Shown: positions 11,132-56,274, counted from the first letter of the stretch. The stretch is DNA of 59,936 nt from a virus (IMGVR_UViG_3300045988_033553:1-59936), one strand, 5' to 3'. Translations and numbers: made by a program. Notes: generated by a model not told the origin, from the letters alone.

Positions 11132-11385
11132 TCTGATACCTCACTTTCCGCTACTTTCTTTTCCTTTTCGAATTCTTCTTTACTGCAAATCAATAATCCA
11201 CCAATATAACTATCTGGCTTTGTGAGTAATCCTGTAACAATTTCATTTGGCATAGCGATCGCCACATTTCCCCATCCGTCCTTGCCACTATTAGCAGATA
11301 TGATATTGGATAATGGGGAAAACTTTAAGTCCTTGTTATCCTTCTGCGACATTCGCTCCATTATTCCTAATGCTCCAATGCTCAT
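11128..11385 (-). CDS. hypothetical protein, 85 aa
   Basis: Intact ORF; 4-nt overlap coupling. Confidence 0.5.
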   Translation of the reverse strand: MSIGALGIMERMSQKDNKDLKFSPLSNIISANSGKDGWGNVAIAMPNEIVTGLLTKPDSYIGGLLICSKEEFEKEKKVAESEVSE

Positions 11386-11561
11386 TTATACACGCCTTTC
11401 TTTCCTTTATTTATCGCGTCTTTTTCACAATACGGAAGAGAACAATGTCCGTATTCCGCAAAATCAAAGAATCCTCTCTTACTTGCACTCTTCCAACGCT
11501 TGCATGACATACACCGCGCATCCGGCTGTGTGACGTTGTTTCCAATTCCTATTCTCGACAT
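11382..11561 (-). CDS. small Cys-rich hypothetical protein, 59 aa
   Basis: ORF 11382-11741 trimmed to MSRIGIGNN to remove the overlap with 11578-12057. Confidence 0.35.
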   Translation of the reverse strand: MSRIGIGNNVTQPDARCMSCKRWKSASKRGFFDFAEYGHCSLPYCEKDAINKGKKGVYK

Positions 11562-11577
11562 TCGGTGTCCTCGCTTT

Positions 11578-12057
11578 CTACAATGTATCCTGATAGAAAA
11601 TTTTTTTATCTTTTGCGAATATAATTGGATGACCATAATAGCCGTTATGTGCATTGTAGACTGCGAATTGTAATGTACCTTTATCTGTTTCAAAGTCGAC
11701 AAACTGAATACCGCCGCATTCTTCGTAATAGCCTGATTCATCTACCTTTTTCTTATTAAGAGCCTTATCTGTAAGATTTACTGCTCTTAATTCTGAACCT
11801 ATAAACTCCTGTTCATCATCATTTAAGTAGAAATATCCCCAGCTTTCACAACAACATTGTCCATTGTCAATCAGCAAAAGAAATTCATGCTTATCCGTTT
11901 TGACTTTGTACCCATCATAAGACGCACCGCCCATTAAACCGCTCATTATCTGAATGATGCCAAGCCTAGACCCATTGCTACCATTTAACGAACCGGTATT
12001 TCCTAAAGATACATTCGTTATTTCTTCGATGCTTAAAATTTTCCCTAACGTTTCCAT
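11578..12057 (-). CDS. hypothetical protein (CCCESWGY / YNAHNGYYGH motifs)
   Basis: 159-aa ORF immediately downstream of the ATPase. Confidence 0.5.
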   Translation of the reverse strand: METLGKILSIEEITNVSLGNTGSLNGSNGSRLGIIQIMSGLMGGASYDGYKVKTDKHEFLLLIDNGQCCCESWGYFYLNDDEQEFIGSELRAVNLTDKALNKKKVDESGYYEECGGIQFVDFETDKGTLQFAVYNAHNGYYGHPIIFAKDKKIFYQDTL

Positions 12058-12058
12058 C

Positions 12059-14095
12059 CTACACGCCCTCCACTTTCAACTGCTTGTCCTCTGAAACACT
12101 CAAAAGAATTAACTGTGCATCCATATCCGGCACATTGAACTCATTCAGCGATTCTGCATTGTCTACGAAAATCGGACAACTAACACCGTACATTTCACTA
12201 AGGGAACGTATAATATCCAGTCCGGCTACGATTCGGTGACCGCTGTTTAATGTCGAATACGGCACGCCATTTACAGTACACTCACAGCAATCTTTCATGC
12301 CGCCATTTAACTGCATTTCAAAGAGTTTGAAATTTACGGTCTTGAAATGACTGTTGATGGATTCAGAAACCTTATCCAGTTTGAAACGAATGAACTCTTC
12401 CAAGAGGTAAAGCATCTGCTCCTGGTCGGCAACTTTCTGCCCGATTTCTTTCTGCTCGTCACGAAGCGTTTCGATACGATCATCAATCGCAACATTGTTA
12501 GCCGCCTGCGCAATAACCTTGTTCACCTCGTCAAGCTGGCTCTGCATATCAGCTTTCTTGGCTTTTAAATCAGTAACAACCTTGTCTGCGCCCTCGGATT
12601 CCAACTTGGCAATATCAGCAAGAATCTTGTCATGTTCTGCTTTCAGCTTCACATATTCTTCATTCTGCGAATAATCAGCTTCTTCTGGGATCTCGGATAA
12701 CAGTTTGCAAAGTTCCTCTTTATTTGTAAGAGTCCCCTGTTCCTGTTTCTTTAAGGAATCTATTTCCATTTGCAGATCAGCATTTTTCTTTGTCAGTTCC
12801 TCGATAAGATTTTTCTTTGCAAACCCATCTGCCTTGATTTCTTCCAAGTTGGATTCTTTCTGGGTAATAAAGTCACTTTTTGAATCATTTAGTTTCCGCT
12901 TTGCATCTGCCTTGGCTTTTGTCTTTCTTTCTTCAAAATCAGCCTTTAACTGCTCAATCTTATCAGCCGGTAACTTCTGACCGCATAAGGAACAAACCGT
13001 TGTAGATTCATCGAATATCCACTTAGATTCATCAAAGAGATACGGGGTTTCATCAAATGCCTTGGCTTTCTCGGAATTATACTGTTCGCCCAGTTTCTTC
13101 CGCTCTGCATCCGCATCAGTGATAGCTTTTTCGTTATCAGAAATCTGTTTCTCTTTCAAAGAAATCGTAACCGCAAAATGTTCTAACTCATTTTTACAAT
13201 CACGCAATTCAGCATCCATGATGCTTCTTTTGTTTGATAACTCGCGATTCATCGTCTGTTCCATGCCGGACATGTCAAACTGTAACTGCATTTCCTTACT
13301 TCTTAAATCGCCCAACGCGCTACCGGCATTCTCCATTTTCTTGCCACATTCAGCGATTCTTCTTACCAGATCTACCTTTGCAAGCTCCTGTTCTGCCACA
13401 TCCACATCAATCTTGGATTTTTCTGCTTCATCAATACGCACCGGAATTTCAGCCTGTTTCTTCTTCCACCCGGATAACGCTTTGGAAAACTTAGCACGGA
13501 TATCATCTGTGGACGGTGCTTTCTCCAACTCGCCGAGTAATGGGGCATACTTAGCATCTGTCTGCGCCAGTTCAACATCCGATACATCCGTTGCGAGGCG
13601 CATCAGAATATCGCGCTGATCTTTCCATTTCAAAGAAGAGAAATACTGCGGATTGGTCAGCATCTTAAACATATCCTCGCTCTGCGCAAGACCGGAAACA
13701 TAAGCTTTGAAATCAGCTTCACTCTTTGGATAACCGTCAATTTCAAATGAATTGACATTTCCCTGCAAAGTCACGGTATCGGTGCCACGCTTCTTTACCC
13801 AGTTCTGCTTCTGAATCTTTGAAAGTTCCATTTCCTTGCCATCTACATCCAGAACCGCTACAACCTTAATCTCCACGTTATCAATGCGCTTTCCGTCCTT
13901 ATCCAGTGGTCGAACATTGAACTTTTCCTCTCCGGCACTGTTCTTATTAAACAGAAGCCATGTAAACGCATCAAAGATAGTTGTCTTTCCTGCGGCGTTC
14001 TGTCCTTTAATACTTGTCTTATTAGAGAAATTCACATCAAGGCTCTTAATTCCCTTGAAATTCTCCATATGTAACGATCTAATTTTCAGTTTCAT
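12059..14095 (-). CDS. Rad50/SbcC-like AAA ATPase with long coiled coil and CxxC hook
   Basis: Start at MKLKIRSLHMENFKGIKSLD; Walker A GQNAAGKTT; ~400 aa of coiled coil; central CSLCGQKL; C-terminal D-loop region IFVDNAESL. Confidence 0.75.
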   Translation of the reverse strand: MKLKIRSLHMENFKGIKSLDVNFSNKTSIKGQNAAGKTTIFDAFTWLLFNKNSAGEEKFNVRPLDKDGKRIDNVEIKVVAVLDVDGKEMELSKIQKQNWVKKRGTDTVTLQGNVNSFEIDGYPKSEADFKAYVSGLAQSEDMFKMLTNPQYFSSLKWKDQRDILMRLATDVSDVELAQTDAKYAPLLGELEKAPSTDDIRAKFSKALSGWKKKQAEIPVRIDEAEKSKIDVDVAEQELAKVDLVRRIAECGKKMENAGSALGDLRSKEMQLQFDMSGMEQTMNRELSNKRSIMDAELRDCKNELEHFAVTISLKEKQISDNEKAITDADAERKKLGEQYNSEKAKAFDETPYLFDESKWIFDESTTVCSLCGQKLPADKIEQLKADFEERKTKAKADAKRKLNDSKSDFITQKESNLEEIKADGFAKKNLIEELTKKNADLQMEIDSLKKQEQGTLTNKEELCKLLSEIPEEADYSQNEEYVKLKAEHDKILADIAKLESEGADKVVTDLKAKKADMQSQLDEVNKVIAQAANNVAIDDRIETLRDEQKEIGQKVADQEQMLYLLEEFIRFKLDKVSESINSHFKTVNFKLFEMQLNGGMKDCCECTVNGVPYSTLNSGHRIVAGLDIIRSLSEMYGVSCPIFVDNAESLNEFNVPDMDAQLILLSVSEDKQLKVEGV

Positions 14096-15353: not shown

Positions 15354-15734
15354 TCACTCCTGCCACTTATAGGAACCGTTGACAATCTCCTCACCATACA
15401 AGGAAACAAAATCTGTTATTAATGCGATAAACTCTGAATTTGTCGGTTTTCCTTTTTCCACTGAAACCGTATAGCCAAAAATTTTGTTGATCGCATTTGT
15501 ATTGCCATTTGTCCAAGTAACTTCTATCGCGTGCCGGATTGATCTTTCTACTCTCCAGACTGTATCGCTGTTTTCTTCTGCAATTTCAGTGTAAAGTCCT
15601 TTAATAATGTGGATAAGTTTGCTTCTATTTTCAAGACATTTCTCAACCGCACTTATTATGTAACCGTAACCCTTAAGGCTATGTTTTACGCCGATCTGAT
15701 CTAATGTCTTTCTTAAGTTCATTTGTCTATCCAT
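15354..15734 (-). CDS. Spo0A C-terminal (0A-box DNA-binding) domain protein lacking a receiver domain
   Basis: [11 protein letters not shown]..., [18 protein letters not shown] and [21 protein letters not shown] align with the Spo0A effector-domain hallmark strings; only 126 aa. Confidence 0.85.
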   Translation of the reverse strand: [126 protein letters not shown]

Positions 15735-42344: not shown

Positions 42345-42367
42345 ACGCCAGATTTTTTTCTAGCAAA

Positions 42368-42449
42368 CGCCGTACACAGGATTTGAACCTGCAAGCCTTT
42401 TACAGCCAACGGTTTTCAAGACCGCTCCCTCACCACCCGGACATACGGC
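42368..42449 (-). tRNA. tRNA-Ser (anticodon UGA)
   Basis: Hand fold: acceptor GCCGTAT/GTACGGC, anticodon arm GCGGT-CTTGAAA-ACCGT, long variable arm, T arm GCAGG-TTCAAAT-CCTGT. Confidence 0.75.
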
Positions 42450-42453
42450 ATAG

Positions 42454-42539
42454 CGCAGTGTGCAGGATTCGAACCTACAAAGCGAATAAACGCCCGACCG
42501 GCTAGCAACCGGCTCCAATTCCAATTATGGGAACACTGC
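42454..42539 (-). tRNA. tRNA-Ser (anticodon GCU)
   Basis: Acceptor GCAGTGT/ACACTGC, anticodon arm GCCGG-TTGCTAG-CCGGT, long variable arm, T loop TTCGAAT. Confidence 0.75.
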
Positions 42540-42629
42540 ATCTTGATGGTGCGATTTCTTAAACAACCCATCCATTACAACTGTCTACCACGCACCTGCC
42601 AAACAGTATTTTTAGGGAGTTGAGTGAAA

Positions 42630-42719
42630 TAGGGAAGAGAGGAATCGAACCTCTATTGTTTACCACTTGGAAACTGATTTACAGTCAGCCGCAACACCGC
42701 CAATCGTTGCCGCTTCCCC
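42630..42719 (-). tRNA. tRNA-Tyr (anticodon GUA)
   Basis: Acceptor GGGGAAG/CTTCCCT, D arm GCAA...TTGC, anticodon arm GCTGA-CTGTAAA-TCAGT, long variable arm, T arm AGAGG-TTCGATT-CCTCT. Confidence 0.75.
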
Positions 42720-42796
42720 AAAATGCGCGGACACCTCACTCCATATCTCTGTACGCGACCGCGCTACGCATACAGTATCAGATCAGCTTGGCACCA

Positions 42797-42883
42797 TCGG
42801 AACGGAAGGATTCGAACCTTCAATCCGGCTCTCGTTGTTGTTTTCCGTGTACACGCCACTTTTACCAATTAAGCTACGTTCCG
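42797..42883 (-). ncRNA. tRNA-Pro-like element A without a recognisable anticodon arm
   Basis: Acceptor CGGAACG/CGTTCCG plus A73; TA-GCTT-AATTGGTAA-AAGT D arm; T arm GAAGG-TTCGAAT-CCTTC. The 35 nt between them (GGCGTGTACACGGAAAACAACAACGAGAGCCGGATT) give no 5-bp/7-nt arm. Confidence 0.5.
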
Positions 42884-43003
42884 AAACCGCCATCAGACGG
42901 TTAGCAATAATGTTTATCGTGCCATGCGTTGCACTAGGCATACAAAATGCCGATTACATCCAAACCATAGAGCGCATGCAAGCAAACAGCATAATTTGAC
43001 CGC

Positions 43004-48854: not shown

Positions 48855-49601
48855 CTAATTCGCTCTCTTCTCTTTCTCTGGCTCTCGGTCTGTTTCTGTT
48901 TTTTCTGTGATTTTGTTGTTCTTGTTCCCATTCGAAAATTCCTCATTTACTTTCTGGTTGCGTGATTTGTAATTTACAATCTTTACATCTGTGTTCAATT
49001 CATCCGGTATCTTCCCGACGATCAACACTGTATGCGGTTGTAGCCTGTCTGTCATTACTTTGAATCCCTCGCAAAACTCAATCCGAGCTGCCTTTGCCCG
49101 AACTCTTCCATTTGTGCATACAGCGATCACACCGCCTTTACTGTACCCGGCAAAGCAAAGATCATAATTGTCTTTGTCCGGGATGCCTACGGACGGTATA
49201 ACACGGATCCCGTTCAGCAGCATATAATGTGCAAGCGCATGGTTCCGGTACACGTTATATAGATTCAAAGCAAACGGCATACCACAATCGCCTGTAGCAA
49301 TACTAAAATCCGGCATACAGACCGAGTGGAAACACTTCAAGTGCTCCAGGTATTTATCCGGGTTATTCCACAGTCTTTGAAACTTTGAATCGTCAATATA
49401 AAAGTTTACATTTAATTTCTTATGCCCTTTTATCTTTTGTGAAAAGCTCTCTCCAAAATCTATGGAGTCCTCCGGCAAATAATCCAAGCTGCATGCCGGG
49501 ACAATCGGGATCTGATATTTTTCATCAAGCTCCGCTCCATAGATCATATATTCTTTCATAACATCAAAAGATGTATGACATCCATTGTACAATACTATCA
49601 C
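48855..49601 (-). CDS. DUF4417 domain protein
   Basis: FYIDDSKFQRLWNNPDKYLEHLKCFHSVCMPDFS...YNVYRNHALAHYMLLNGIRVIPSV matches my recollection of the DUF4417 pattern. Confidence 0.6.
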   Translation of the reverse strand: MIVLYNGCHTSFDVMKEYMIYGAELDEKYQIPIVPACSLDYLPEDSIDFGESFSQKIKGHKKLNVNFYIDDSKFQRLWNNPDKYLEHLKCFHSVCMPDFSIATGDCGMPFALNLYNVYRNHALAHYMLLNGIRVIPSVGIPDKDNYDLCFAGYSKGGVIAVCTNGRVRAKAARIEFCEGFKVMTDRLQPHTVLIVGKIPDELNTDVKIVNYKSRNQKVNEEFSNGNKNNKITEKTETDREPEKEKRAN

Positions 49602-49616
49602 CCCAAAAACATTTTA

Positions 49617-49766
49617 CTATTTTTCTCCTTGACAAACAACTTCTTTTGTGAAAAGCAAAGAACGTGCGGCGTAATCACTTCTGCTTAGTTCATTTATCAG
49701 CTTTTCCCTTGTCATTTCCGGGTTTGTTCTGTGAATATACCGCAGCAATTCATCTATTTTGTCCAC
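49617..49766 (-). CDS. small hypothetical protein, 49 aa (GTG start overlapping the upstream stop)
   Basis: Hand translation VDKIDELLRYIHRTNPEMTREKLINELSRSDYAARSLLFTKEVVCQGEK; RBS GGAGGG. Confidence 0.35.
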   Translation of the reverse strand: MDKIDELLRYIHRTNPEMTREKLINELSRSDYAARSLLFTKEVVCQGEK

Positions 49767-50086
49767 TATGCTGCCCTCCAATCAATGTTTGCCATCAAAT
49801 CATCCAGCAAATAAATTAAATCTGCCCCATACAGGCTTATCCAGTCCGCAAGATACTCTTCCTGCTCAATTGGCATATGAATGTTATAGGAAAAACAAAA
49901 ACAATGGCAAAGCTCATGAGCCAGTATTTTGCGCAAATAGCCATTTTTCGGTTTATCTGAAACATATATAGCCCTGTCGTTCCAATCGGTCACAGCAAGG
50001 CTGGTAGAGCCATCAGAGCGCATCAGCTTTCCGCTTGCACTGTGAACAAATTCTATTTTCCATTCAATACCATTTATTAAAAACAT
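49766..50086 (-). CDS. HExxH zinc-metalloprotease-like protein (ImmA/IrrE- or SprT-like)
   Basis: 106 aa; LAHELCHCF motif after a beta-rich N-terminus. Confidence 0.5.
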   Translation of the reverse strand: MFLINGIEWKIEFVHSASGKLMRSDGSTSLAVTDWNDRAIYVSDKPKNGYLRKILAHELCHCFCFSYNIHMPIEQEEYLADWISLYGADLIYLLDDLMANIDWRAA

Positions 50087-50159: not shown

Positions 50160-50822
50160 TTATTCTTCAATAAGTAGGTAATTGATGTATCTTGTCGCCG
50201 TATCGTTGAGGTCTCTATTAAAATCAAGCAGATCAAGAGCGTATTCCGGTGGATATCCATAACTGGCGTAATATGCCTTTTCGATTGCGCGTAAGTTGTG
50301 CAGATCCGATAATTCCACGAGAATCTTGTGATATAAAAATTTTCGAGTCCAACCAAACCGTTCTAGGATTATACTTAACTTCCAGTTGTTCTTTGAAAAC
50401 CATGTTTCCGTTTCATGTTTCCATCGAATCTCCCAGTGCTCAAACGGGTCTTTCTCCGTAATTGCAGGGTGCGGTTTTTTCAGCGCTTGTTCCATGTCGT
50501 GGAATCGTTTCACATATCGAGCAGTAAAGACAATTCCCTTTTCCCCGTTAAATTTGTTTGCGAGGAACTCACATCCCATGCGGGTTACTTTGTAGCATGG
50601 CATCTCCTTATTTTGTTCAGATAAGTATGTAGACGGTATAAAATAGTCGGTAACAACAATTTTGTTGTCTCCTAAAATTTGTATAATTCCTTTGATTTTT
50701 TTCGTTCCGTCCAGCTTTCTTAAAATCTGCCAGTGAGGCATTTCCATCATGTCCGCAATGTCGATAGTTGTCAGTGTCAGTTCTTCTTTATTTTCTGAAA
50801 TCTGAATATCGTTCATCAGCAA
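50160..50822 (-). CDS. Rha-family phage regulatory protein
   Basis: LTTIDIADMMEMPHWQILRKL...YKVTRMGCEFLANKFNGEKGIVFTARYVKRFHDME fits the Rha pattern. Confidence 0.65.
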   Translation of the reverse strand: MLMNDIQISENKEELTLTTIDIADMMEMPHWQILRKLDGTKKIKGIIQILGDNKIVVTDYFIPSTYLSEQNKEMPCYKVTRMGCEFLANKFNGEKGIVFTARYVKRFHDMEQALKKPHPAITEKDPFEHWEIRWKHETETWFSKNNWKLSIILERFGWTRKFLYHKILVELSDLHNLRAIEKAYYASYGYPPEYALDLLDFNRDLNDTATRYINYLLIEE

Positions 50823-50833
50823 ATCTCCCTCTC

Positions 50834-51076
50834 TTATACTTTCGGAACATAAGTTCCGTCCATAATGCCAATAGCAAGTTTCATGCCCTCTACGGCATAG
50901 AAGCGGTTATTGTCAGTAGTACAGTCAATAAGAAGTTCAAGCAATTCATCATAAACGCTTTCGCTCACAATTCCCTTAAGTCTCTCCATGAGCGGCTCAA
51001 AAAATTCGCGCCATTTCCCACCCTGTTCCTCATCTGCAATTTGACTTGCGTATACTATTTCTAAAAATTTGTTCAT
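50834..51076 (-). CDS. hypothetical protein, 80 aa
   Basis: Intact ORF. Confidence 0.5.
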   Translation of the reverse strand: MNKFLEIVYASQIADEEQGGKWREFFEPLMERLKGIVSESVYDELLELLIDCTTDNNRFYAVEGMKLAIGIMDGTYVPKV

Positions 51077-51199
51077 TATCTTTCACTGCCTTTCTTTTCA
51101 AAAAATGTTTGATTCCTCCGAAAGAAAGTGATATGATTGATTTATCAATTCATTTCGGATTGGTGTCAGAGTAGTCAGTTACCGCCAAGTAATGCTTGA

Positions 51200-51373
51200 C
51201 TACTCTTTTTCTTTTTCCAAAAGAAGATGAATTCCTCGTCTTATAGCTTCGCCTTTAGTAAGATTGTATTTTTTACAATACAATCTCAATTTTAATTCAG
51301 TTTCTTTATCAAGACGAATGCTGAACCTGTTTGACTTTGGGTTATCAACTTTTGGACGACCTGCTGGTGACAT
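51200..51373 (-). CDS. ribbon-helix-helix (CopG-like) protein, 57 aa
   Basis: Hand translation MSPAGRPKVDNPKSNRFSIRLDKETELKLRLYCKKYNLTKGEAIRRGIHLLLEKEKE is a typical RHH. Confidence 0.6.
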   Translation of the reverse strand: MSPAGRPKVDNPKSNRFSIRLDKETELKLRLYCKKYNLTKGEAIRRGIHLLLEKEKE

Positions 51374-51390: not shown

Positions 51391-51431
51391 TGTCACACCT
51401 TTATTATATTTATGTCACACCAAAAAGTCAA
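51391..51431 (-). promoter_or_regulatory. promoter TTGACT-17-TATAAT with two GGTGTGACA direct repeats bracketing the -10
   Basis: Plus-strand attata at 51403-51408 and agtcaa at 51426-51431; tgtcacacc at 51391-51399 and 51413-51421. Confidence 0.6.
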
Positions 51432-51529: not shown

Positions 51530-51560
51530 GTTCAAACAAACAGGGGCATTCCTGCCCCTG
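51530..51560 (-). terminator. rho-independent terminator after the cargo island
   Basis: Minus-strand AGGGGCA-GGAA-TGCCCCT followed by GTTTGTTTG. Confidence 0.55.
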
Positions 51561-51563
51561 CCA

Positions 51564-52211
51564 TTACATTTTGGAAACAAGCGTTGACAGCTTGCTTTTT
51601 GTCATTGTGCGCTCTTCCGGCGTCATATCGGAGATAAGTTCCGCCATATCCTCCGAAAGCTCTTTCATGTACTTTTCAAGGTCACGCATTTTTGCATCCT
51701 TGTCTTCTGGCGTATTTCCTCTATGGAGTTCTTTGCTTTCCATGTAGGATTTACGGCTCATTCCGCTTTTACCCTCTCTGCGGTCACGCATACCGCCATC
51801 TGCCGCAATTGTAGGCTCTGTGTAATACATTCGCCCATGTGGTCGATCAATGTCGCGGTCGTGTTCCATTTCCCGGTACATTTCTGGTGTCATGTGCCAG
51901 TACGGAGGTTCTTCATATCCTCTCCGCGTTCCTCTTCCCTTTGGAGCAAATCTGCCGTTTGCATAGCGGTAGTTATCATAAAATCTTCTGCCGTCATCGA
52001 ATCGATCAAACATTTCCATTGTTTCATCTGCACTGGATTCTTCCATTGCTTTCATCAATGTACGATAATACATTGCTTCTGCAAGGTCTTTCATCATATC
52101 TGTAACCTGTCCCATTTCGCATGGGTCTATATTTTCAATTCCTTTGTCAATTTCGCATTTAGCACATTCAGACAGTTTTTCAATCATGTCGTGCATTCTC
52201 ATAATATCCAT
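51564..52211 (-). CDS. hypothetical M/R/E/D/Y-rich protein, 215 aa
   Basis: Start at MDIMRMHDMIEKL, preceded by AAGGAGGGCGGTTTT; low-complexity charged composition. Confidence 0.55.
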   Translation of the reverse strand: MDIMRMHDMIEKLSECAKCEIDKGIENIDPCEMGQVTDMMKDLAEAMYYRTLMKAMEESSADETMEMFDRFDDGRRFYDNYRYANGRFAPKGRGTRRGYEEPPYWHMTPEMYREMEHDRDIDRPHGRMYYTEPTIAADGGMRDRREGKSGMSRKSYMESKELHRGNTPEDKDAKMRDLEKYMKELSEDMAELISDMTPEERTMTKSKLSTLVSKM

Positions 52212-52224
52212 AAAACCGCCCTCC

Positions 52225-52647
52225 TTACGCTTCCCGGACTGCAATTAAATTGCTGTTCTGAACTTCGATTGCCTGCGTAGACGTATTCTGTACCGCTACC
52301 GTAACACAGCAACCGCGAGGAACGTCCACATATGCCTGCGCCGAAACGTTAAAGAAGTTTTCAACTGCCGCCGGTGTAACAATCATTCGAGTTGACTGCA
52401 ACGGTTCTCCGTCAATTGCAATAGCCAGTGAAATAGCTTCAACTGTGCCACCTGTAGGAATTTGAATGTTTCCAGAATAAGATACCAAAAATCTTGCCCG
52501 GCACTGATTTGTAAGTCCTCTCAATTTGACAATGCCGCTTCCCTGTCTATGAAGAATGCATTTTGTTGCGCATACCGGAGTTTCTGTAAATGCAACATCT
52601 TCTCCCTGCGCGACAGTTTGAATTGCAATCCCTGTAAATTCTGCCAT
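52225..52647 (-). CDS. hypothetical beta-sandwich protein, possibly C1q/TNF-like (BclA C-terminal-domain-like)
   Basis: 140 aa. Alternating beta pattern FLVSYSGNIQIP...ISLAIAIDGEPL...VTVAVQNTS resembles BclA_C-type jelly rolls (from memory). Confidence 0.5.
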   Translation of the reverse strand: MAEFTGIAIQTVAQGEDVAFTETPVCATKCILHRQGSGIVKLRGLTNQCRARFLVSYSGNIQIPTGGTVEAISLAIAIDGEPLQSTRMIVTPAAVENFFNVSAQAYVDVPRGCCVTVAVQNTSTQAIEVQNSNLIAVREA

Positions 52648-52663
52648 AATTATTTACCTCTCT

Positions 52664-52698
52664 TTCAAAAAATAAGGGCAAACATTATAGTCTGCCCT
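52664..52698 (-). terminator. rho-independent terminator
   Basis: Minus-strand AAGGGCA-12 nt-TGCCCTT followed by ATTTTTTG. Confidence 0.55.
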
Positions 52699-52777
52699 TG
52701 TGTTTATAAGCAATACTGCACAGCAGACATAATCGAGTTAAACTCAATTAAGATACTCAATTATTCAATTTTGTGTA

Positions 52778-52811
52778 GCAGCTACTTTTAGCAGCTACTT
52801 TTAGCAGCTAC
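52778..52811. repeat. 13-bp tandem repeat x2.6 spanning the stop codon of 52801-53592
   Basis: gcagctactttta at 52778-52790 and 52791-52803, then gcagctac at 52804-52811. Confidence 0.9.
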
Positions 52812-53592
52812 ATCCTGTGTTACATCCACAACCATACGCATAAGCGTTAGGATTTGGCACAACATATGCCGGGATTGCAGCCGGATTTACAGCGTTGATA
52901 ATCTGCTGTGTCTGCGCTGACATTGCTGTTGTAAGCAATGCAGACTGTTTGTCCTGAGAAGCTGCTCTTCTTAAGTCGCTATTTTCTGCCTGTAAGGAAG
53001 AAATCTTTTCCTGGCACAGGTAATCAAGGATTGCCCTTGTTCCTGCCTGCTGGCTCTCGATGATATCTCTTGTGTTGCTGTTCATGGTGTTTTGCAGTGC
53101 ACAGGTGTTCTGCGCCATATTGTAGTTCACACCCTGGATAGCTTCTCTGGTCTCACAGCAGCAATTAGCAAGCTGTGCCTGCAATGCGTTTGTGTTCTGC
53201 ATGGATGCCACCGTATCAGCGTTAATAGCCTGCTGGATGCCAAATCCGGTCTGCATGACATTCGTGTTAATGCCGTTAAATCCGGTCAACATTGAGTTGT
53301 TTACAGCATAGAAACCATCACAGAGACCATTTGTGATACCATCTAACTTTCCGATGATAGCCTGCGTGTCAAATCCACGCTGAATTGCGGAATCGGTGTA
53401 TGCAGATGCTGTCGCTCCTATACCTCCGTTTCCTCCCCAGCCATTGCCGCCAAAGCCGCCCCAGCCAAAGATCATTGCGAAGATAATGATAGCCCACCAG
53501 CCATCGCCGCCCCACATGCCATCATTGTTTCTTCCGTTTCCTGTCACTGCTGCAATATCAGCAAGACTAGGAGATGCGTTTCCATTAAACAT
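52801..53592 (-). CDS. G/W-rich TM segment plus Q/N-rich, Cys-rich-tail protein, 263 aa, unknown function
   Basis: Start at MFNGNASPS, preceded by GGAGGTAAACAAA; GMWGGDGWWAIIIFAMIFGWGGFGGNGWGGNGG; CCCE motif; C-terminus YGCGCNTGCSC. Confidence 0.6.
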   Translation of the reverse strand: MFNGNASPSLADIAAVTGNGRNNDGMWGGDGWWAIIIFAMIFGWGGFGGNGWGGNGGIGATASAYTDSAIQRGFDTQAIIGKLDGITNGLCDGFYAVNNSMLTGFNGINTNVMQTGFGIQQAINADTVASMQNTNALQAQLANCCCETREAIQGVNYNMAQNTCALQNTMNSNTRDIIESQQAGTRAILDYLCQEKISSLQAENSDLRRAASQDKQSALLTTAMSAQTQQIINAVNPAAIPAYVVPNPNAYAYGCGCNTGCSC

Positions 53593-53661
53593 TTTGTTTA
53601 CCTCCATCTGATTTATTTACAAATGGGATAACCGGTTATTGTGCGCGCAACCCAAAATGTA

Positions 53662-53862
53662 CTAATGATTAAACATACTCATAACCTTTTGTTTTGCTTC
53701 ATCTACTGTAATTCCTCTTTCTTTGCAGAGATTCTCTGCCATTGTCTTAAGTCCACCTGTATCTCCGCTTTGATACATTTGCATGGCATTTTTTGCCATA
53801 GGATTGTTTTGAACCTGCGGAGAATTCATCATCTGATTTAACAATAATTGTGCCGGATTCAT
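53662..53862 (-). CDS. hypothetical Q/N/M-rich protein, 66 aa
   Basis: Intact ORF coupled (ATGA) to the upstream gene. Confidence 0.5.
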   Translation of the reverse strand: MNPAQLLLNQMMNSPQVQNNPMAKNAMQMYQSGDTGGLKTMAENLCKERGITVDEAKQKVMSMFNH

Positions 53863-54386
53863 TCTGGATCACTCTCCTTTTTTACCTGTGAAGTTTTTCT
53901 TTGACTGCTTGGAATTTTATCTAATCGGTTTTCTATCTGTTCAATCTTCCCAAAAAGTTCATCAAACTTCTGCATAAATGCACCTGTGCACTCGTCTGAT
54001 AGGTCAAATTTCAATTTTTCAGTATCATGCGATAAATTGCTAACAGTATCATGCGAAACTGGCTTAAAAACGATTGTGCGAATTGTGCCATCTGCGTTCC
54101 AACTTTTAGCGTATATTTCTGTCATATCCTGTTTTGGGAAAAATGCAACGCTGCCATCCATTGGCACATCATTGGCAGTGATGTTTTCTACCGCCGGAAC
54201 TACTTTTCCATTTATGCCAAAAGTTTGAACCGGGATCTGCTGCTGAATTTGCTGCGGTGCCTGCATATAATTTTGTGTATTATCAATGCGTGGCTGATTC
54301 ATATACGAATTGTATGCGTACTGCTGCCCGTATTGCTGCATCTGCTGATTATAAATCGGATTCTGGTATGCTCCGCTCATATTCAT
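53859..54386 (-). CDS. hypothetical protein with a Q/N/Y-rich N-terminal low-complexity domain, 175 aa
   Basis: MNMSGAYQNPIYNQQMQQYGQQYAYNSYMNQPRIDNTQNYMQAPQQIQQQIPVQ, then a folded-looking domain and a coiled coil. Confidence 0.55.
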   Translation of the reverse strand: MNMSGAYQNPIYNQQMQQYGQQYAYNSYMNQPRIDNTQNYMQAPQQIQQQIPVQTFGINGKVVPAVENITANDVPMDGSVAFFPKQDMTEIYAKSWNADGTIRTIVFKPVSHDTVSNLSHDTEKLKFDLSDECTGAFMQKFDELFGKIEQIENRLDKIPSSQRKTSQVKKESDPE

Positions 54387-54513
54387 CCTGTTTGACCTCC
54401 TCTAAAACATCTTCTATTGCGTGTATGATAGACGACTGCGTTGATAAGTCCAAGGACTGTAACTCTTTTCTGGCAAAAATTTTTTCAAGAACTTCATCTG
54501 AAAACACCACCAT
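54349..54513 (-). CDS. small hypothetical protein (~52-54 aa; ATG/GTG start ambiguous)
   Basis: GGGAGGGATGGTGGTG start region; overlaps the start of 53859-54386 out of frame. Confidence 0.3.
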   Translation of the reverse strand: MVVFSDEVLEKIFARKELQSLDLSTQSSIIHAIEDVLEEVKQDEYERSIPESDL

Positions 54514-54631
54514 CCCTCCCTTTGATTATATTTTTGCATAAAAAAAGGCGGCAAAACCGTCACGATTCCGACAGTTTGCCGTCAAAAAATACAACAAAAA
54601 AAGAACGCATTAAGCGTCCATACATCCGTTC

Positions 54632-54840
54632 GTGTTACCTTTAGTGTTACCTTTGATTTTGACCTTTAGAAAAGACACCATTCAAAAACTCCTTTCTTTC
54701 AGTAAAATCAAGGCTTCACAAGGTTTTCTTAAATAAAAATAAAGTAGCGGAAGGGAGATTCGAACTCGGTATCAATTCTCTCAAACCCGCATAAATACTG
54801 AATTTCTTTATCTCCAAAGGTGTTACCTCGTGTTACCTTT
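54632..54840. mobile_element. attP region: tRNA 3'-end core flanked by four GTGTTACCT(TT) arm-type repeats
   Basis: Repeats at 54632-54642, 54644-54654, 54820-54828 and 54830-54840. The core 54744-54767 reads on the minus strand GAGTTCGAATCTCCCTTCCGCTAC (T loop, T stem 3' strand, acceptor 3' strand). Confidence 0.6.
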
Positions 54841-56042
54841 TACATTGATAATGCTTTTGCAATATATTCCTGCATTTCACTCTCTGTCTTGTTATTAAAA
54901 TAGTAATGATCGAGAGTTGTTCTGATATCTGTATGCCCCATTTGTGTTTTTATTACCGATTCTGGAACATTTCCATCTATCAACTTTGTTGCATATGTCT
55001 TTCTTGCCTTGTGAATTGAACGTTCACCAATTCCTATTCTATCACATATCACATATAGCCGCCTTGTAAATGCCTGACCTTTTATTCGTTTACCGTTTTT
55101 CATAAAAATATATTGCCCAAATGGATTGAGCATTTTTATTTTTCTCATAAGTTCTTTGGTATCTGCGGTAATTATAACATCTCTAAACCCGGCATCACTT
55201 TTAGGAAAATTTTGAACATCAAATACATATTTGCCATTATCATCTCTATATCTTATTTCTGTCTTTGATATATGTATCTTATTTTCTCCGACATCAGACC
55301 ATGAGAGGGTAGATATTTCCCCAACTCTCAATCCTGTTTTAAATGCCAAAATAATGCCAAGTTCTATCAATGTAGGCTCATCTTCCATTACAAATCGTTC
55401 AATTAAAAGTTCCTCATCCTTAGAAAATACCAATTCGCAGTCTGACTTATGGTTCTTTTTAAATGACTTTTCCGAAATTTCCAAATCACCCATAAAACTG
55501 GTTATGCTCAGGCTGGTATAATGTTTTTTCTTTGCATATTTGAAAATTCCGTTAATCAATATCCGCATATCAGAATAAGCTTTTTGCGTAAGTTCCAGTT
55601 TTGAAATAGCTGTTTTTATGAATGATTCCAATATTTCTTCATCAATGTACCGGATTTTTCTATTTGCAATCGGCAAATACTTATTTTCAAAAAATCTTTT
55701 AAAATTTGTCTCGTACTTGTCCTTTGTCTGTCTTGTTATTTCACCATATTCAAGTTTTTCAGAAATCCAATTAGAATATACTTGAATAACTGTAGGTTCA
55801 TCCTCCTTAGCTTTATAGAACTTTACTATTTCATCTTCAATTGCTTTTTCAGATGTTCTCTTTACAAGTCTCTTTCCTCTCTTATTATCTTCATCTGGCA
55901 AATATGTGTAAAACTTTCCATCTTTTCCTTGCCAAATGCTGTAAGTGTGTTTTTCAATAAATTTTTTCCTTTCGTTCATTTCAATTTTTTTCTGAATGGT
56001 GTCTATGTTGATAATACCATTTTCGATGGCAATATTCAACAA
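54840..56042 (-). CDS. int: tyrosine recombinase / phage integrase
   Basis: 400 aa. GLRVGEI (Arg I), HKARKTYAT (His-x-x-Arg), GHTDIRTTLDHYY (His/Tyr nucleophile region). Confidence 0.9.
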   Translation of the reverse strand: MLNIAIENGIINIDTIQKKIEMNERKKFIEKHTYSIWQGKDGKFYTYLPDEDNKRGKRLVKRTSEKAIEDEIVKFYKAKEDEPTVIQVYSNWISEKLEYGEITRQTKDKYETNFKRFFENKYLPIANRKIRYIDEEILESFIKTAISKLELTQKAYSDMRILINGIFKYAKKKHYTSLSITSFMGDLEISEKSFKKNHKSDCELVFSKDEELLIERFVMEDEPTLIELGIILAFKTGLRVGEISTLSWSDVGENKIHISKTEIRYRDDNGKYVFDVQNFPKSDAGFRDVIITADTKELMRKIKMLNPFGQYIFMKNGKRIKGQAFTRRLYVICDRIGIGERSIHKARKTYATKLIDGNVPESVIKTQMGHTDIRTTLDHYYFNNKTESEMQEYIAKALSM

Positions 56043-56046
56043 CTCA

Positions 56047-56274
56047 CTATTTGAAAGATTTCCCGTTTAACTCACCTTCTAACTTTTTTACTTTCTGTTT
56101 AATATCAAAAATTCTTCTTTCCACTGTTCTTGTTGATACGCATAGTCTCATGGCTATTTCTTTTGAAATAAGTCCACGGGCAAGAAGATAAAATATTTCT
56201 TCTTCCTGCTCCGTGAAATTGGCGTTTTCAATAATTGTTTCAAGCTCTGGCTTAGTCAGTTTTGAAAACTTCAT
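56047..56274 (-). CDS. LuxR/sigma-70 region-4-type HTH protein, 75 aa
   Basis: FTEQEEEIFYLLARGLISKEIAMRLCVSTRTVERRIFDIKQK. Confidence 0.65.
   Translation of the reverse strand: MKFSKLTKPELETIIENANFTEQEEEIFYLLARGLISKEIAMRLCVSTRTVERRIFDIKQKVKKLEGELNGKSFK

Follow-up and report, generated by a model that had tools for sequence, protein, structure and literature searches.

A conserved multigene cassette of low-complexity and cysteine-rich proteins in phages of gut and rumen Clostridia

The viral sequence IMGVR_UViG_3300045988_033553 (59,936 nucleotides, analyzed over its whole length and hereafter called the window) carries on its minus strand five adjacent genes, here named A to E, that had been singled out from the sequence as a cargo island of low-complexity proteins next to attP, with a possible role at the spore surface. 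We found that this region is one copy of a self-contained and horizontally mobile phage cassette, with the arrangement R-(P or s)-A-B-C-D-E-(F or Z), found very commonly among the phages of Clostridia from gut and rumen, and not an island private to this virus. A regulator gene, a promoter-like site, and terminators belong to the cassette itself, one of its products (D) is modeled with a jelly-roll fold, and another (C) extends to phages and viruses of very different hosts. A late, membrane-linked role for the system seems possible.

Gene order and membership of the cassette

A set of 83 phage and prophage loci of Clostridia was fetched, and iterative searches were run over their open reading frames (ORFs). 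The order A-(B)-C-D-E was found in essentially all 83 loci, down to D proteins with an identity of 41%, and such conservation of order across ca. 80 independent loci exceeds chance. A was present in 76 of 84 sources and E in 81, while B-type ORFs lay between A and C in ca. 78 loci. Around this core, P (ca. 126 amino acids [aa], with conserved Cys and His) preceded A in 61 loci and F (ca. 108 aa) followed E in 31. In the lineage of the window these two are replaced by s, a small ORF kept only there (eight loci) and annotated as a gene in relatives, and by the HExxH protein Z. The recurrent extended architectures were PABCDEF (23 loci), PABCDE (19 loci), and sABCDEZ (4 loci).

Z stands directly after E in two close relatives (L093 and L094), and its membership is uncertain. 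In the window it has been displaced by an inserted block of a ribbon-helix-helix (RHH) gene, an 80-aa gene, and a Rha anti-repressor gene (50160-51373, minus strand), which is absent from both relatives; the RHH gene has a near-consensus promoter, TTGACT-17-TATAAT, at 51403-51431. P was considered as a core component and is doubted as such: homologues of it stand on their own in Tsamsa-like phages of Bacillus and in GBK2, a phage of Geobacillus, and it may be no more than a frequent neighbor. The P homologues Tsamsa gp15 (L091) and GBK2 gp35 (L090) belong to phrog_3754, annotated as “putative peptidase” in some records, and are found among the early genes of large Bacillus siphoviruses without A to E.

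The cassette tolerates invasion at fixed junctions. Gene insertions were found at the C-D and D-E junctions and comprised an AntA-domain gene, blocks of 1.0 to 1.4 kb, and a 264-aa gene in the Butyrivibrio phage Ceridwen (L001, 7166-7960); the loci concerned include L008 to L012, between C and D, and L084 to L089, at ca. 11160-12360. In the Clostridium perfringens phages XP41-N3 (L002, 6469-6846) and CPD1 (L096, 7703-8080), an unrelated 125-aa protein occupies the position of D. This protein has no Pfam match, and its Cys-rich N terminus (MTCNRRCNCCNRR...) recalls the N-terminal connectors of endospore-appendage subunits.

Composition, family assignment, and abundance of the encoded proteins

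All five ORFs proposed for the island were confirmed in place on the minus strand (Table 1), and residue counts against the background of the window upheld the low-complexity composition described for A, B, and E, the features described for C being present as well. Thus, Q, N, Y, and M make up 64% of residues 1 to 55 of A (17% in the other proteins of the window), Q, N, and M account for 36% of B (13% in the background), and M, R, E, D, and Y for 49% of E in its 215-aa form (26% in the background). A ends in a coiled coil and has, besides the disordered Q/N/Y/M-rich N terminus, a small domain rich in beta structure, with WVQGExGAKxY..V.L.DSE..IY.KS.D..G as family consensus. B is small and predicted to be helical, and E consists of an N-terminal helical part, a central disordered region rich in R, G, Y, S, and D, and a C-terminal helix, with RRDSMGRYS as family motif. 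No hydrophobic segment was found in any family member of A, B, D, or E. C is laid out as a short acidic N-terminal tail, one hydrophobic segment flanked by Gly and Trp (GGDGWWAIIIFAMIFGWGGFGG), a helical Q/N-rich region, and a Cys- and Gly-rich C terminus (ending in YGCGCNTGCSC). The CCC at residues 149 to 151 is part of a nearly invariant CCC(E) motif, and CP.PAY is present in most homologues. C is predicted to cross the membrane once and to have a large soluble part that is helical and rich in cysteines, and it is the putative anchor of the cassette.

Table 1. Coordinates of the cassette genes and associated elements in the window
Feature	Position	Strand	Description
R	56047-56274	minus	75-aa GerE/LuxR (sigma-70 region-4-like) helix-turn-helix protein; Pfam GerE, E value 9e-8, above the curated cut-off
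Probable attP core	ca. 54744-54767	minus	tRNA 3'-end-like GAGTTCGAATCTCCCTTCCGCTAC, just past the integrase stop codon; context, not a cassette member
Upstream terminator-like hairpin	54603-54619	minus	-8.4 kcal/mol, z -4.5; with T-run
Upstream terminator-like hairpin	54549-54581	minus	-17.7 kcal/mol, z -3.5; with T-run
Promoter-like site	54525-54554	minus	T-run followed by TATGCAAAAATATAAT, 10/12 matches; immediately precedes the first gene's ribosome-binding site
s	54349-54513	minus	54-aa ORF, overlapping the start of A
A	53859-54386	minus	175-aa ORF
B	53662-53862	minus	66-aa ORF
C	52801-53607	minus	268-aa ORF; 263-aa start in public gene calls
C-D intrinsic-terminator hairpin	52674-52699	minus	-16.2 kcal/mol, z -5.0; T-run after
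D	52225-52647	minus	140-aa ORF
E	51564-52244	minus	226 aa from TTG; 215 aa from ATG
Cassette-closing terminator hairpin	51533-51560	minus	-18.2 kcal/mol, z -3.6
Z	49766-50086	minus	106-aa HExxH protein (SprT/M78-like)

Searches with A to E against Pfam, NCBIfam, and PADLOC gave no match (E value ≤ 1), and neither did sequence and profile searches of the PDB with A, C, D, and E. Within PHROG, A corresponds to phrog_21718, C to phrog_16490 (E value 8e-56), and D to phrog_20016 (E value 1e-68), all of them families of unknown function, while B of Ceridwen falls in phrog_22984 and E of Dulem virus 35 in phrog_28802. These Pfam, NCBIfam, PADLOC, and PHROG results agree with the view that the proteins have no likeness to standard structural, lysis, or replication families of phages. 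The families are nonetheless large, with at least 7,995 clusters at 90% identity for C and at least 7,900 for D, all unnamed or hypothetical Caudoviricetes proteins. At 50% identity, an exhaustive search for C returned 1,945 representatives, of which the best 150 measured 230 to 300 aa and were in no case fused to another domain; a look-up of the 268-aa form returned no record. In a scan of one genome per species, D was present in 137 genomes, mostly of Lachnospiraceae, Oscillospiraceae, and other Clostridia, and the few D-bearing contigs labeled as other phyla are probably binning errors.

All of the homologues that we saw lay in a phage or prophage context, and none was a chromosomal sporulation gene, a point for which a check had been suggested. 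No description of the cassette was found in the searchable literature. The system, very widespread among phages, appears to be undescribed, and its families are among the commoner families of unknown function in gut and rumen viromes, with no Pfam family, name, or sequence-related solved structure.

Regulator, promoter-like site, and terminators

In 59 of 76 loci, an R-like gene of 65 to 90 aa was located no more than 2.5 kb upstream of A, in the same orientation. The window has an unusual layout (54840-56274, minus strand) in that the integrase gene and attP lie between R and the cassette; R and the cassette would consequently be at opposite ends of the prophage and adjacent only in the circular form. 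The intergenic regions between R and the cassette (n = 58) showed a recurrent sigma-A-type TRTG extended -10 element, and the strict succession of a hairpin, a T-run, and the extended -10 (TRTGn-nAnAAT) was found in 11 of these 58 loci, against ca. 1 expected.

Both terminators first marked around D and E proved to be true hairpins (Table 1), one between C and D and the other closing the cassette. The two hairpins that precede the promoter-like site are predicted to shield the cassette from transcription coming from upstream. In the C-D hairpin the loop reads TATAAT, with TTGCTT 18 nucleotides before it, and a promoter for D and E may be embedded in this terminator.

Genomic contexts of the cassette

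The cassette moves as a unit and was found in at least four distinct genomic contexts. It follows the endolysin and lysis genes in Ceridwen, stands between the minor capsid gene and the scaffold and major capsid genes in Dulem virus 35, lies among early genes in XP41-N3 and CPD1, and adjoins attP in the lineage of the window. Holin and endolysin genes were its commonest neighbors. Among the 122 ORFs immediately upstream of R or of the cassette, 13 matched holin families, and there were ca. 35 family matches to cell-wall-binding or wall-hydrolase domains, a figure higher than the number of endolysin ORFs because one ORF may match several families. Downstream, the neighbors were mostly integrases (seven tyrosine-type and two with a Resolvase domain, that is, serine-type), host genes, and early recombination genes. 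Ceridwen has no integrase, and its growth has been seen only as lytic, on Butyrivibrio fibrisolvens (PMC7372960).

The location next to attP was borne out by the tRNA 3'-end-like sequence just past the integrase stop codon and by the free and integrated forms of related phages. In the integrated form, host genes and the genes for tRNA-Val and tRNA-Met lead directly into s-A-B-C, and in the free form the integrase occupies the place of the host genes and tRNAs. The two forms become identical inside the T-loop of tRNA-Met, so the cassette adjoins attP and forms the extreme end of the prophage when integrated. This position in the relatives of the window, together with the integrases or host genes found downstream across loci, supports the proposed cargo nature of the genes, as an autonomous unit.

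Like phage morons, the cassette is autonomous, has a promoter-like site and four predicted hairpin terminators of its own, and is inserted at varied sites in otherwise unrelated phages, with the stretch from the lysis genes to att/int as the most frequent one. It is, however, far larger and stricter in order than typical morons, with five to eight genes and a dedicated regulator. Apparently virulent phages also carry it, and it occurs within late operons too. The moron-like traits could fit a superinfection exclusion or anti-phage system expressed from the prophage, where C and its partners would either keep DNA from entering the cell or set off an abortive infection. Exclusion and defense genes of Gram-positive temperate phages are often near the integrase and lysogeny genes, as is the cassette where it is att-proximal at the prophage end or placed between the lysis genes and the integrase, and the sigma-A-type promoter-like site, the terminators, and the membrane protein at the core of the system would also suit such a role. 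Against it, none of the five proteins matched a PADLOC model, five low-complexity proteins without a recognized enzymatic or nucleotide-binding domain would be unusual for defense, and the cassette sits inside late operons in some cases and has apparently virulent carriers (Ceridwen and the Crassvirales described below). We consider exclusion unlikely, although it deserves some weight.

Homologues of protein C outside Clostridia

A protein search with the C of the C. perfringens phages retrieved six phages of this species and many crAss-like phages. Among the latter, gp022 of cr116_1 is a full-length C homologue that shows every hallmark of the family: QCCC, LAASQQAQTA, PSPAYVV, the hydrophobic segment with Gly and Trp, and a C terminus rich in Cys. 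The profile built from Firmicutes C proteins recovered cr116_1 (E value 1e-35), the cultured Bacteroides uniformis phage C3_41T2LP (E value 7e-40), and a virus assigned to Methanomassiliicoccales (E value 1e-17), and C homologues were also present in more Crassvirales and in a second archaeal virus. The genes after C in these genomes encode a beta-rich Cys protein, a protein with beta and coiled-coil parts, and a short R/D/Y-rich protein.

In Suoliviridae crAss-like phages, the gene order is holin, LysB-like, DUF7841, and C. In cr52_1 (L099, 1460-9826), in-frame TAG codons occur in C (two) and in the gene two places downstream (seven), as they do in the neighboring lysis and structural genes, which points to reassignment of TAG there. 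Recoding of this kind is regarded as a mark of late genes.

Two further observations concern these genomes. In-frame TAG was seen in most genes of the same late region of cr52_1, and the C homologue of crAss-like and Bacteroides phages is accompanied by genes for DUF7841 and for an HExxH/PolyVal metallopeptidase (L100, 3845-4450; L098, 7357-7758), the DUF7841 protein being annotated as “RNA polymerase sigma factor/ubiquitin-like.”

Fold of protein D and its relation to exosporium and virion proteins

The AlphaFold model of D, obtained from an alignment of 137 sequences, was confident and all beta (predicted local distance difference test [pLDDT] of 92.4 and predicted template-modeling score [pTM] of 0.85), as had been anticipated. 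Its best match in a Foldseek search of the PDB was the C-terminal domain of F-BclA (9h38; E value 4e-8, template-modeling [TM] score 0.75), and the other top matches were BxpB (8d02), ExsFA/ExsF (7r1m, 7r5i, and 9h3d), and the C-terminal domain of BclA (1wck and 2z5w). Over these exosporium proteins, E values ranged from 4e-8 to 6e-6 and TM scores from ca. 0.67 to 0.76, with a sequence identity of ca. 11%. Lower matches included EDA, 4-1BBL, and C1q and also the phage fiber or spike knobs 8ke9 and 9eul. Among predicted viral structures, many small stand-alone phage proteins had the same fold, some of them labeled “BclA protein.” As modeled, D is a stand-alone TNF/C1q-like jelly roll and presumably trimeric. 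It carries an invariant GCC motif, and conserved cysteines are found in both C and D.

The likeness to BclA and C1q that had been proposed for D was therefore right at the level of the fold, the best PDB matches being exosporium TNF/C1q-like proteins. Membership in the BclA_C sequence family did not hold, since D had no Pfam or NCBIfam family at an E value of ≤ 1 and no sequence or profile match in the PDB. Both a collagen-like GXX stalk and an N-terminal exosporium-targeting motif are absent from D, whose 140 aa cover the globular domain only.

The TNF/C1q-like jelly roll is thus common to D and to exosporium proteins of the Bacillus cereus group (the C-terminal domains of BclA and F-BclA, and BxpB/ExsFA). 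With ExsFA/BxpB, D also shares its small size, its stand-alone form, and the lack of a signal peptide, and it is in the company of cysteine-rich partners, ExsY being such a partner of ExsFA. D differs from them in being encoded by phages, including phages of non-sporulating hosts, in its low identity, and in its lack of a collagen-like stalk, and the cassette differs in that its C has a membrane segment whereas the exosporium proteins have none.

These similarities bear on the idea that the genes act in lysogenic conversion to remodel the spore coat or exosporium, their products being made in the mother cell and assembling on the forespore like BclA, ExsFA, and ExsY. Besides the structural matches of D, a composition rich in Cys, Tyr, Gly, and Gln without signal peptides, as in spore-coat proteins, would fit this idea, as would the location of the cassette at the prophage end in the lineage of the window, with its own promoter-like site and terminators, the Spo0A_C protein encoded by the phage, and the many host lineages that are Clostridia. 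However, the cassette is present in the integrase-less Ceridwen, whose Butyrivibrio host is not known to form spores, and C homologues reach the Crassvirales, a Bacteroides phage, and archaeal viruses. Where promoters of sporulation sigma factors had been suggested as a check, none of the 58 regions between R and the cassette contained a sigma-K-like or a sigma-E-like motif (chance expectation only ca. 0.6 and ca. 0.2, respectively), and the recurrent motifs are of the sigma-A type. The identity of D to exosporium proteins is low, it has neither a BclA_C match nor a collagen repeat, and phage receptor-binding proteins, too, commonly have TNF-like folds. The resemblance to YjcZ-type sporulation proteins is compositional and limited to one segment of C, which at 263 to 268 aa has no NCBIfam or Pfam match. 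Together with the exclusively phage contexts of the homologues, these data weigh against a spore-surface or exosporium role as a general explanation, and we regard it as very improbable. An exosporium-like fold alone does not make D a spore gene, and a tempting over-reading is corrected in this way.

The same fold could point to the virion, where the products might be accessory proteins, either of fibers or decorations (with C as coiled coil and D as trimeric knob) or proteins that are ejected and enter the host membrane. The C homologues of Crassvirales are annotated as “outer capsid protein/viral fiber” or “spike protein” and stand among structural genes, the cassette of Dulem virus 35 has capsid genes on both sides, phage fibers contain TNF-like knobs such as those matched by D, and the products lack signal peptides. 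Yet the crAss annotations are automatic labels and not experimental, the cassette is found at highly variable positions, often away from the structural module, with early genes or by att, and it has a regulator gene, promoter-like site, and terminators of its own. A strongly hydrophobic segment would also be unusual in a fiber protein. A role in the virion thus seems rather unlikely.

A possible membrane-linked late module

We tentatively favor, short of regarding it as probable, a late lytic action of the cassette linked to lysis, to egress, or to material released at lysis. Late action is favored because the cassette is mostly found directly after holin-endolysin genes and because C is among the late, stop-codon-recoded genes of a crAss-like phage. 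A, B, D, and E would be cytoplasmic products, as they have no signal peptide or membrane segment. Together with C they would form a multivalent assembly at the membrane of the cell, in the simplest case on the cytoplasmic side, and cysteines may cross-link it. The assembly of A, B, D, and E with C, the membrane topology, and the timing are what we infer, and for C itself we lean weakly toward an N-out/C-in topology. The proteins that the fold of D matches best assemble by themselves in the cytoplasm of the mother cell, and by analogy the assembly mechanism of the cassette may resemble theirs, which does not imply that it belongs to the exosporium system.

Several results weigh against a membrane-linked late module. 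The model of C had a pLDDT of 36 (shallow alignment, with 82 to 100% identity). The flanks of its membrane segment are nearly uncharged; the N-terminal tail is acidic and Arg often comes after the segment, and the charge bias for topology is weak. The strict promoter motif is present in just 19% of loci. In the lineage of the window the cassette is distant from the lysis genes, and elsewhere its position after them need not signal a role in lysis because this is the classical site of morons in temperate Gram-positive phages. Finally, a profile-profile comparison of the crAss-like and Bacteroides neighbors of C with the A, D, and E families of Firmicutes found no similarity. Only C is demonstrably shared across phyla, since its neighbors have no detectable homology to A, D, and E, and we do not claim that the whole cassette is.

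A much broader version of the late module would see in the cassette a near-universal late function of gut phages, common to those of Gram-positives, Bacteroidota (crAss-like), and methanogenic archaea: a membrane-anchored, cysteine-cross-linkable assembly that would either complete or control membrane disruption and virion release or build a protective structure released at lysis. We put this forward as a speculation that is more probably wrong than right by a wide measure.

In its single N-proximal membrane segment, long helical soluble part, and conserved cysteines, C resembles single-pass lysis proteins whose soluble domain is large, namely, holins like T of phage T4 and i-spanins like Rz, and the genes beside it are often of the holin, endolysin, or LysB-like kind. 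Searches of Pfam and of the PHROG lysis families linked C to no holin or spanin family, whether by sequence or by profile. C differs in being mostly from phages of Gram-positive hosts and also from archaeal viruses, where spanins have no role, and the loci with the cassette already encode canonical holins and have no lipoprotein partner. A putative likeness is to clostridial toxin and bacteriocin loci of the TcdR/UviA type, in which a small sigma-like regulator is directly upstream of cargo without signal peptides, beside holin-type genes. Unlike in those loci, R of the phages of Clostridia comprises only a region-4/GerE-type helix-turn-helix of 65 to 90 aa, and no toxin or bacteriocin domain was found.

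Because the cassette has an invariant order and its own regulator, and because its putative anchor C is shared with crAss-like and archaeal viruses, it points to a real and selectable function without a category in current phage biology. This question is directly testable since cultured systems exist, namely, Ceridwen on B. fibrisolvens DSM 3071, the C. perfringens phages CPD1 and XP41-N3, C3_41T2LP on B. uniformis, and the prophage of Lachnospira intestinalis CLA-AA-H89B.

Other features of the window

Downstream of the cassette, the window and its relatives have a DUF4417 gene (48855-49601, minus strand, in the window), and genes for ArdA (anti-restriction) and MazG are found farther downstream in L084 to L089. 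These surroundings look like an early gene set of the anti-defense type. A perfect tandem direct repeat of two copies of AAAAGTAGCTGCT (52777-52802, minus strand) begins in the last two bases of the stop codon of C (TAA, 52801-52803).

The Spo0A domain reported in the same phage was confirmed as an ORF with a Spo0A_C match (15354-15734, minus strand; Pfam E value 1.4e-33). It is a stand-alone protein of 126 aa, with the recognition-helix motif WRVERSIRHAIEVTW, and represents a phage copy of the output (DNA-binding) domain of the master regulator of sporulation. Four phage tRNA genes (Ser-tga, Ser-gct, Tyr-gta, and Arg-acg) are clustered at 42367-42884 on the minus strand.

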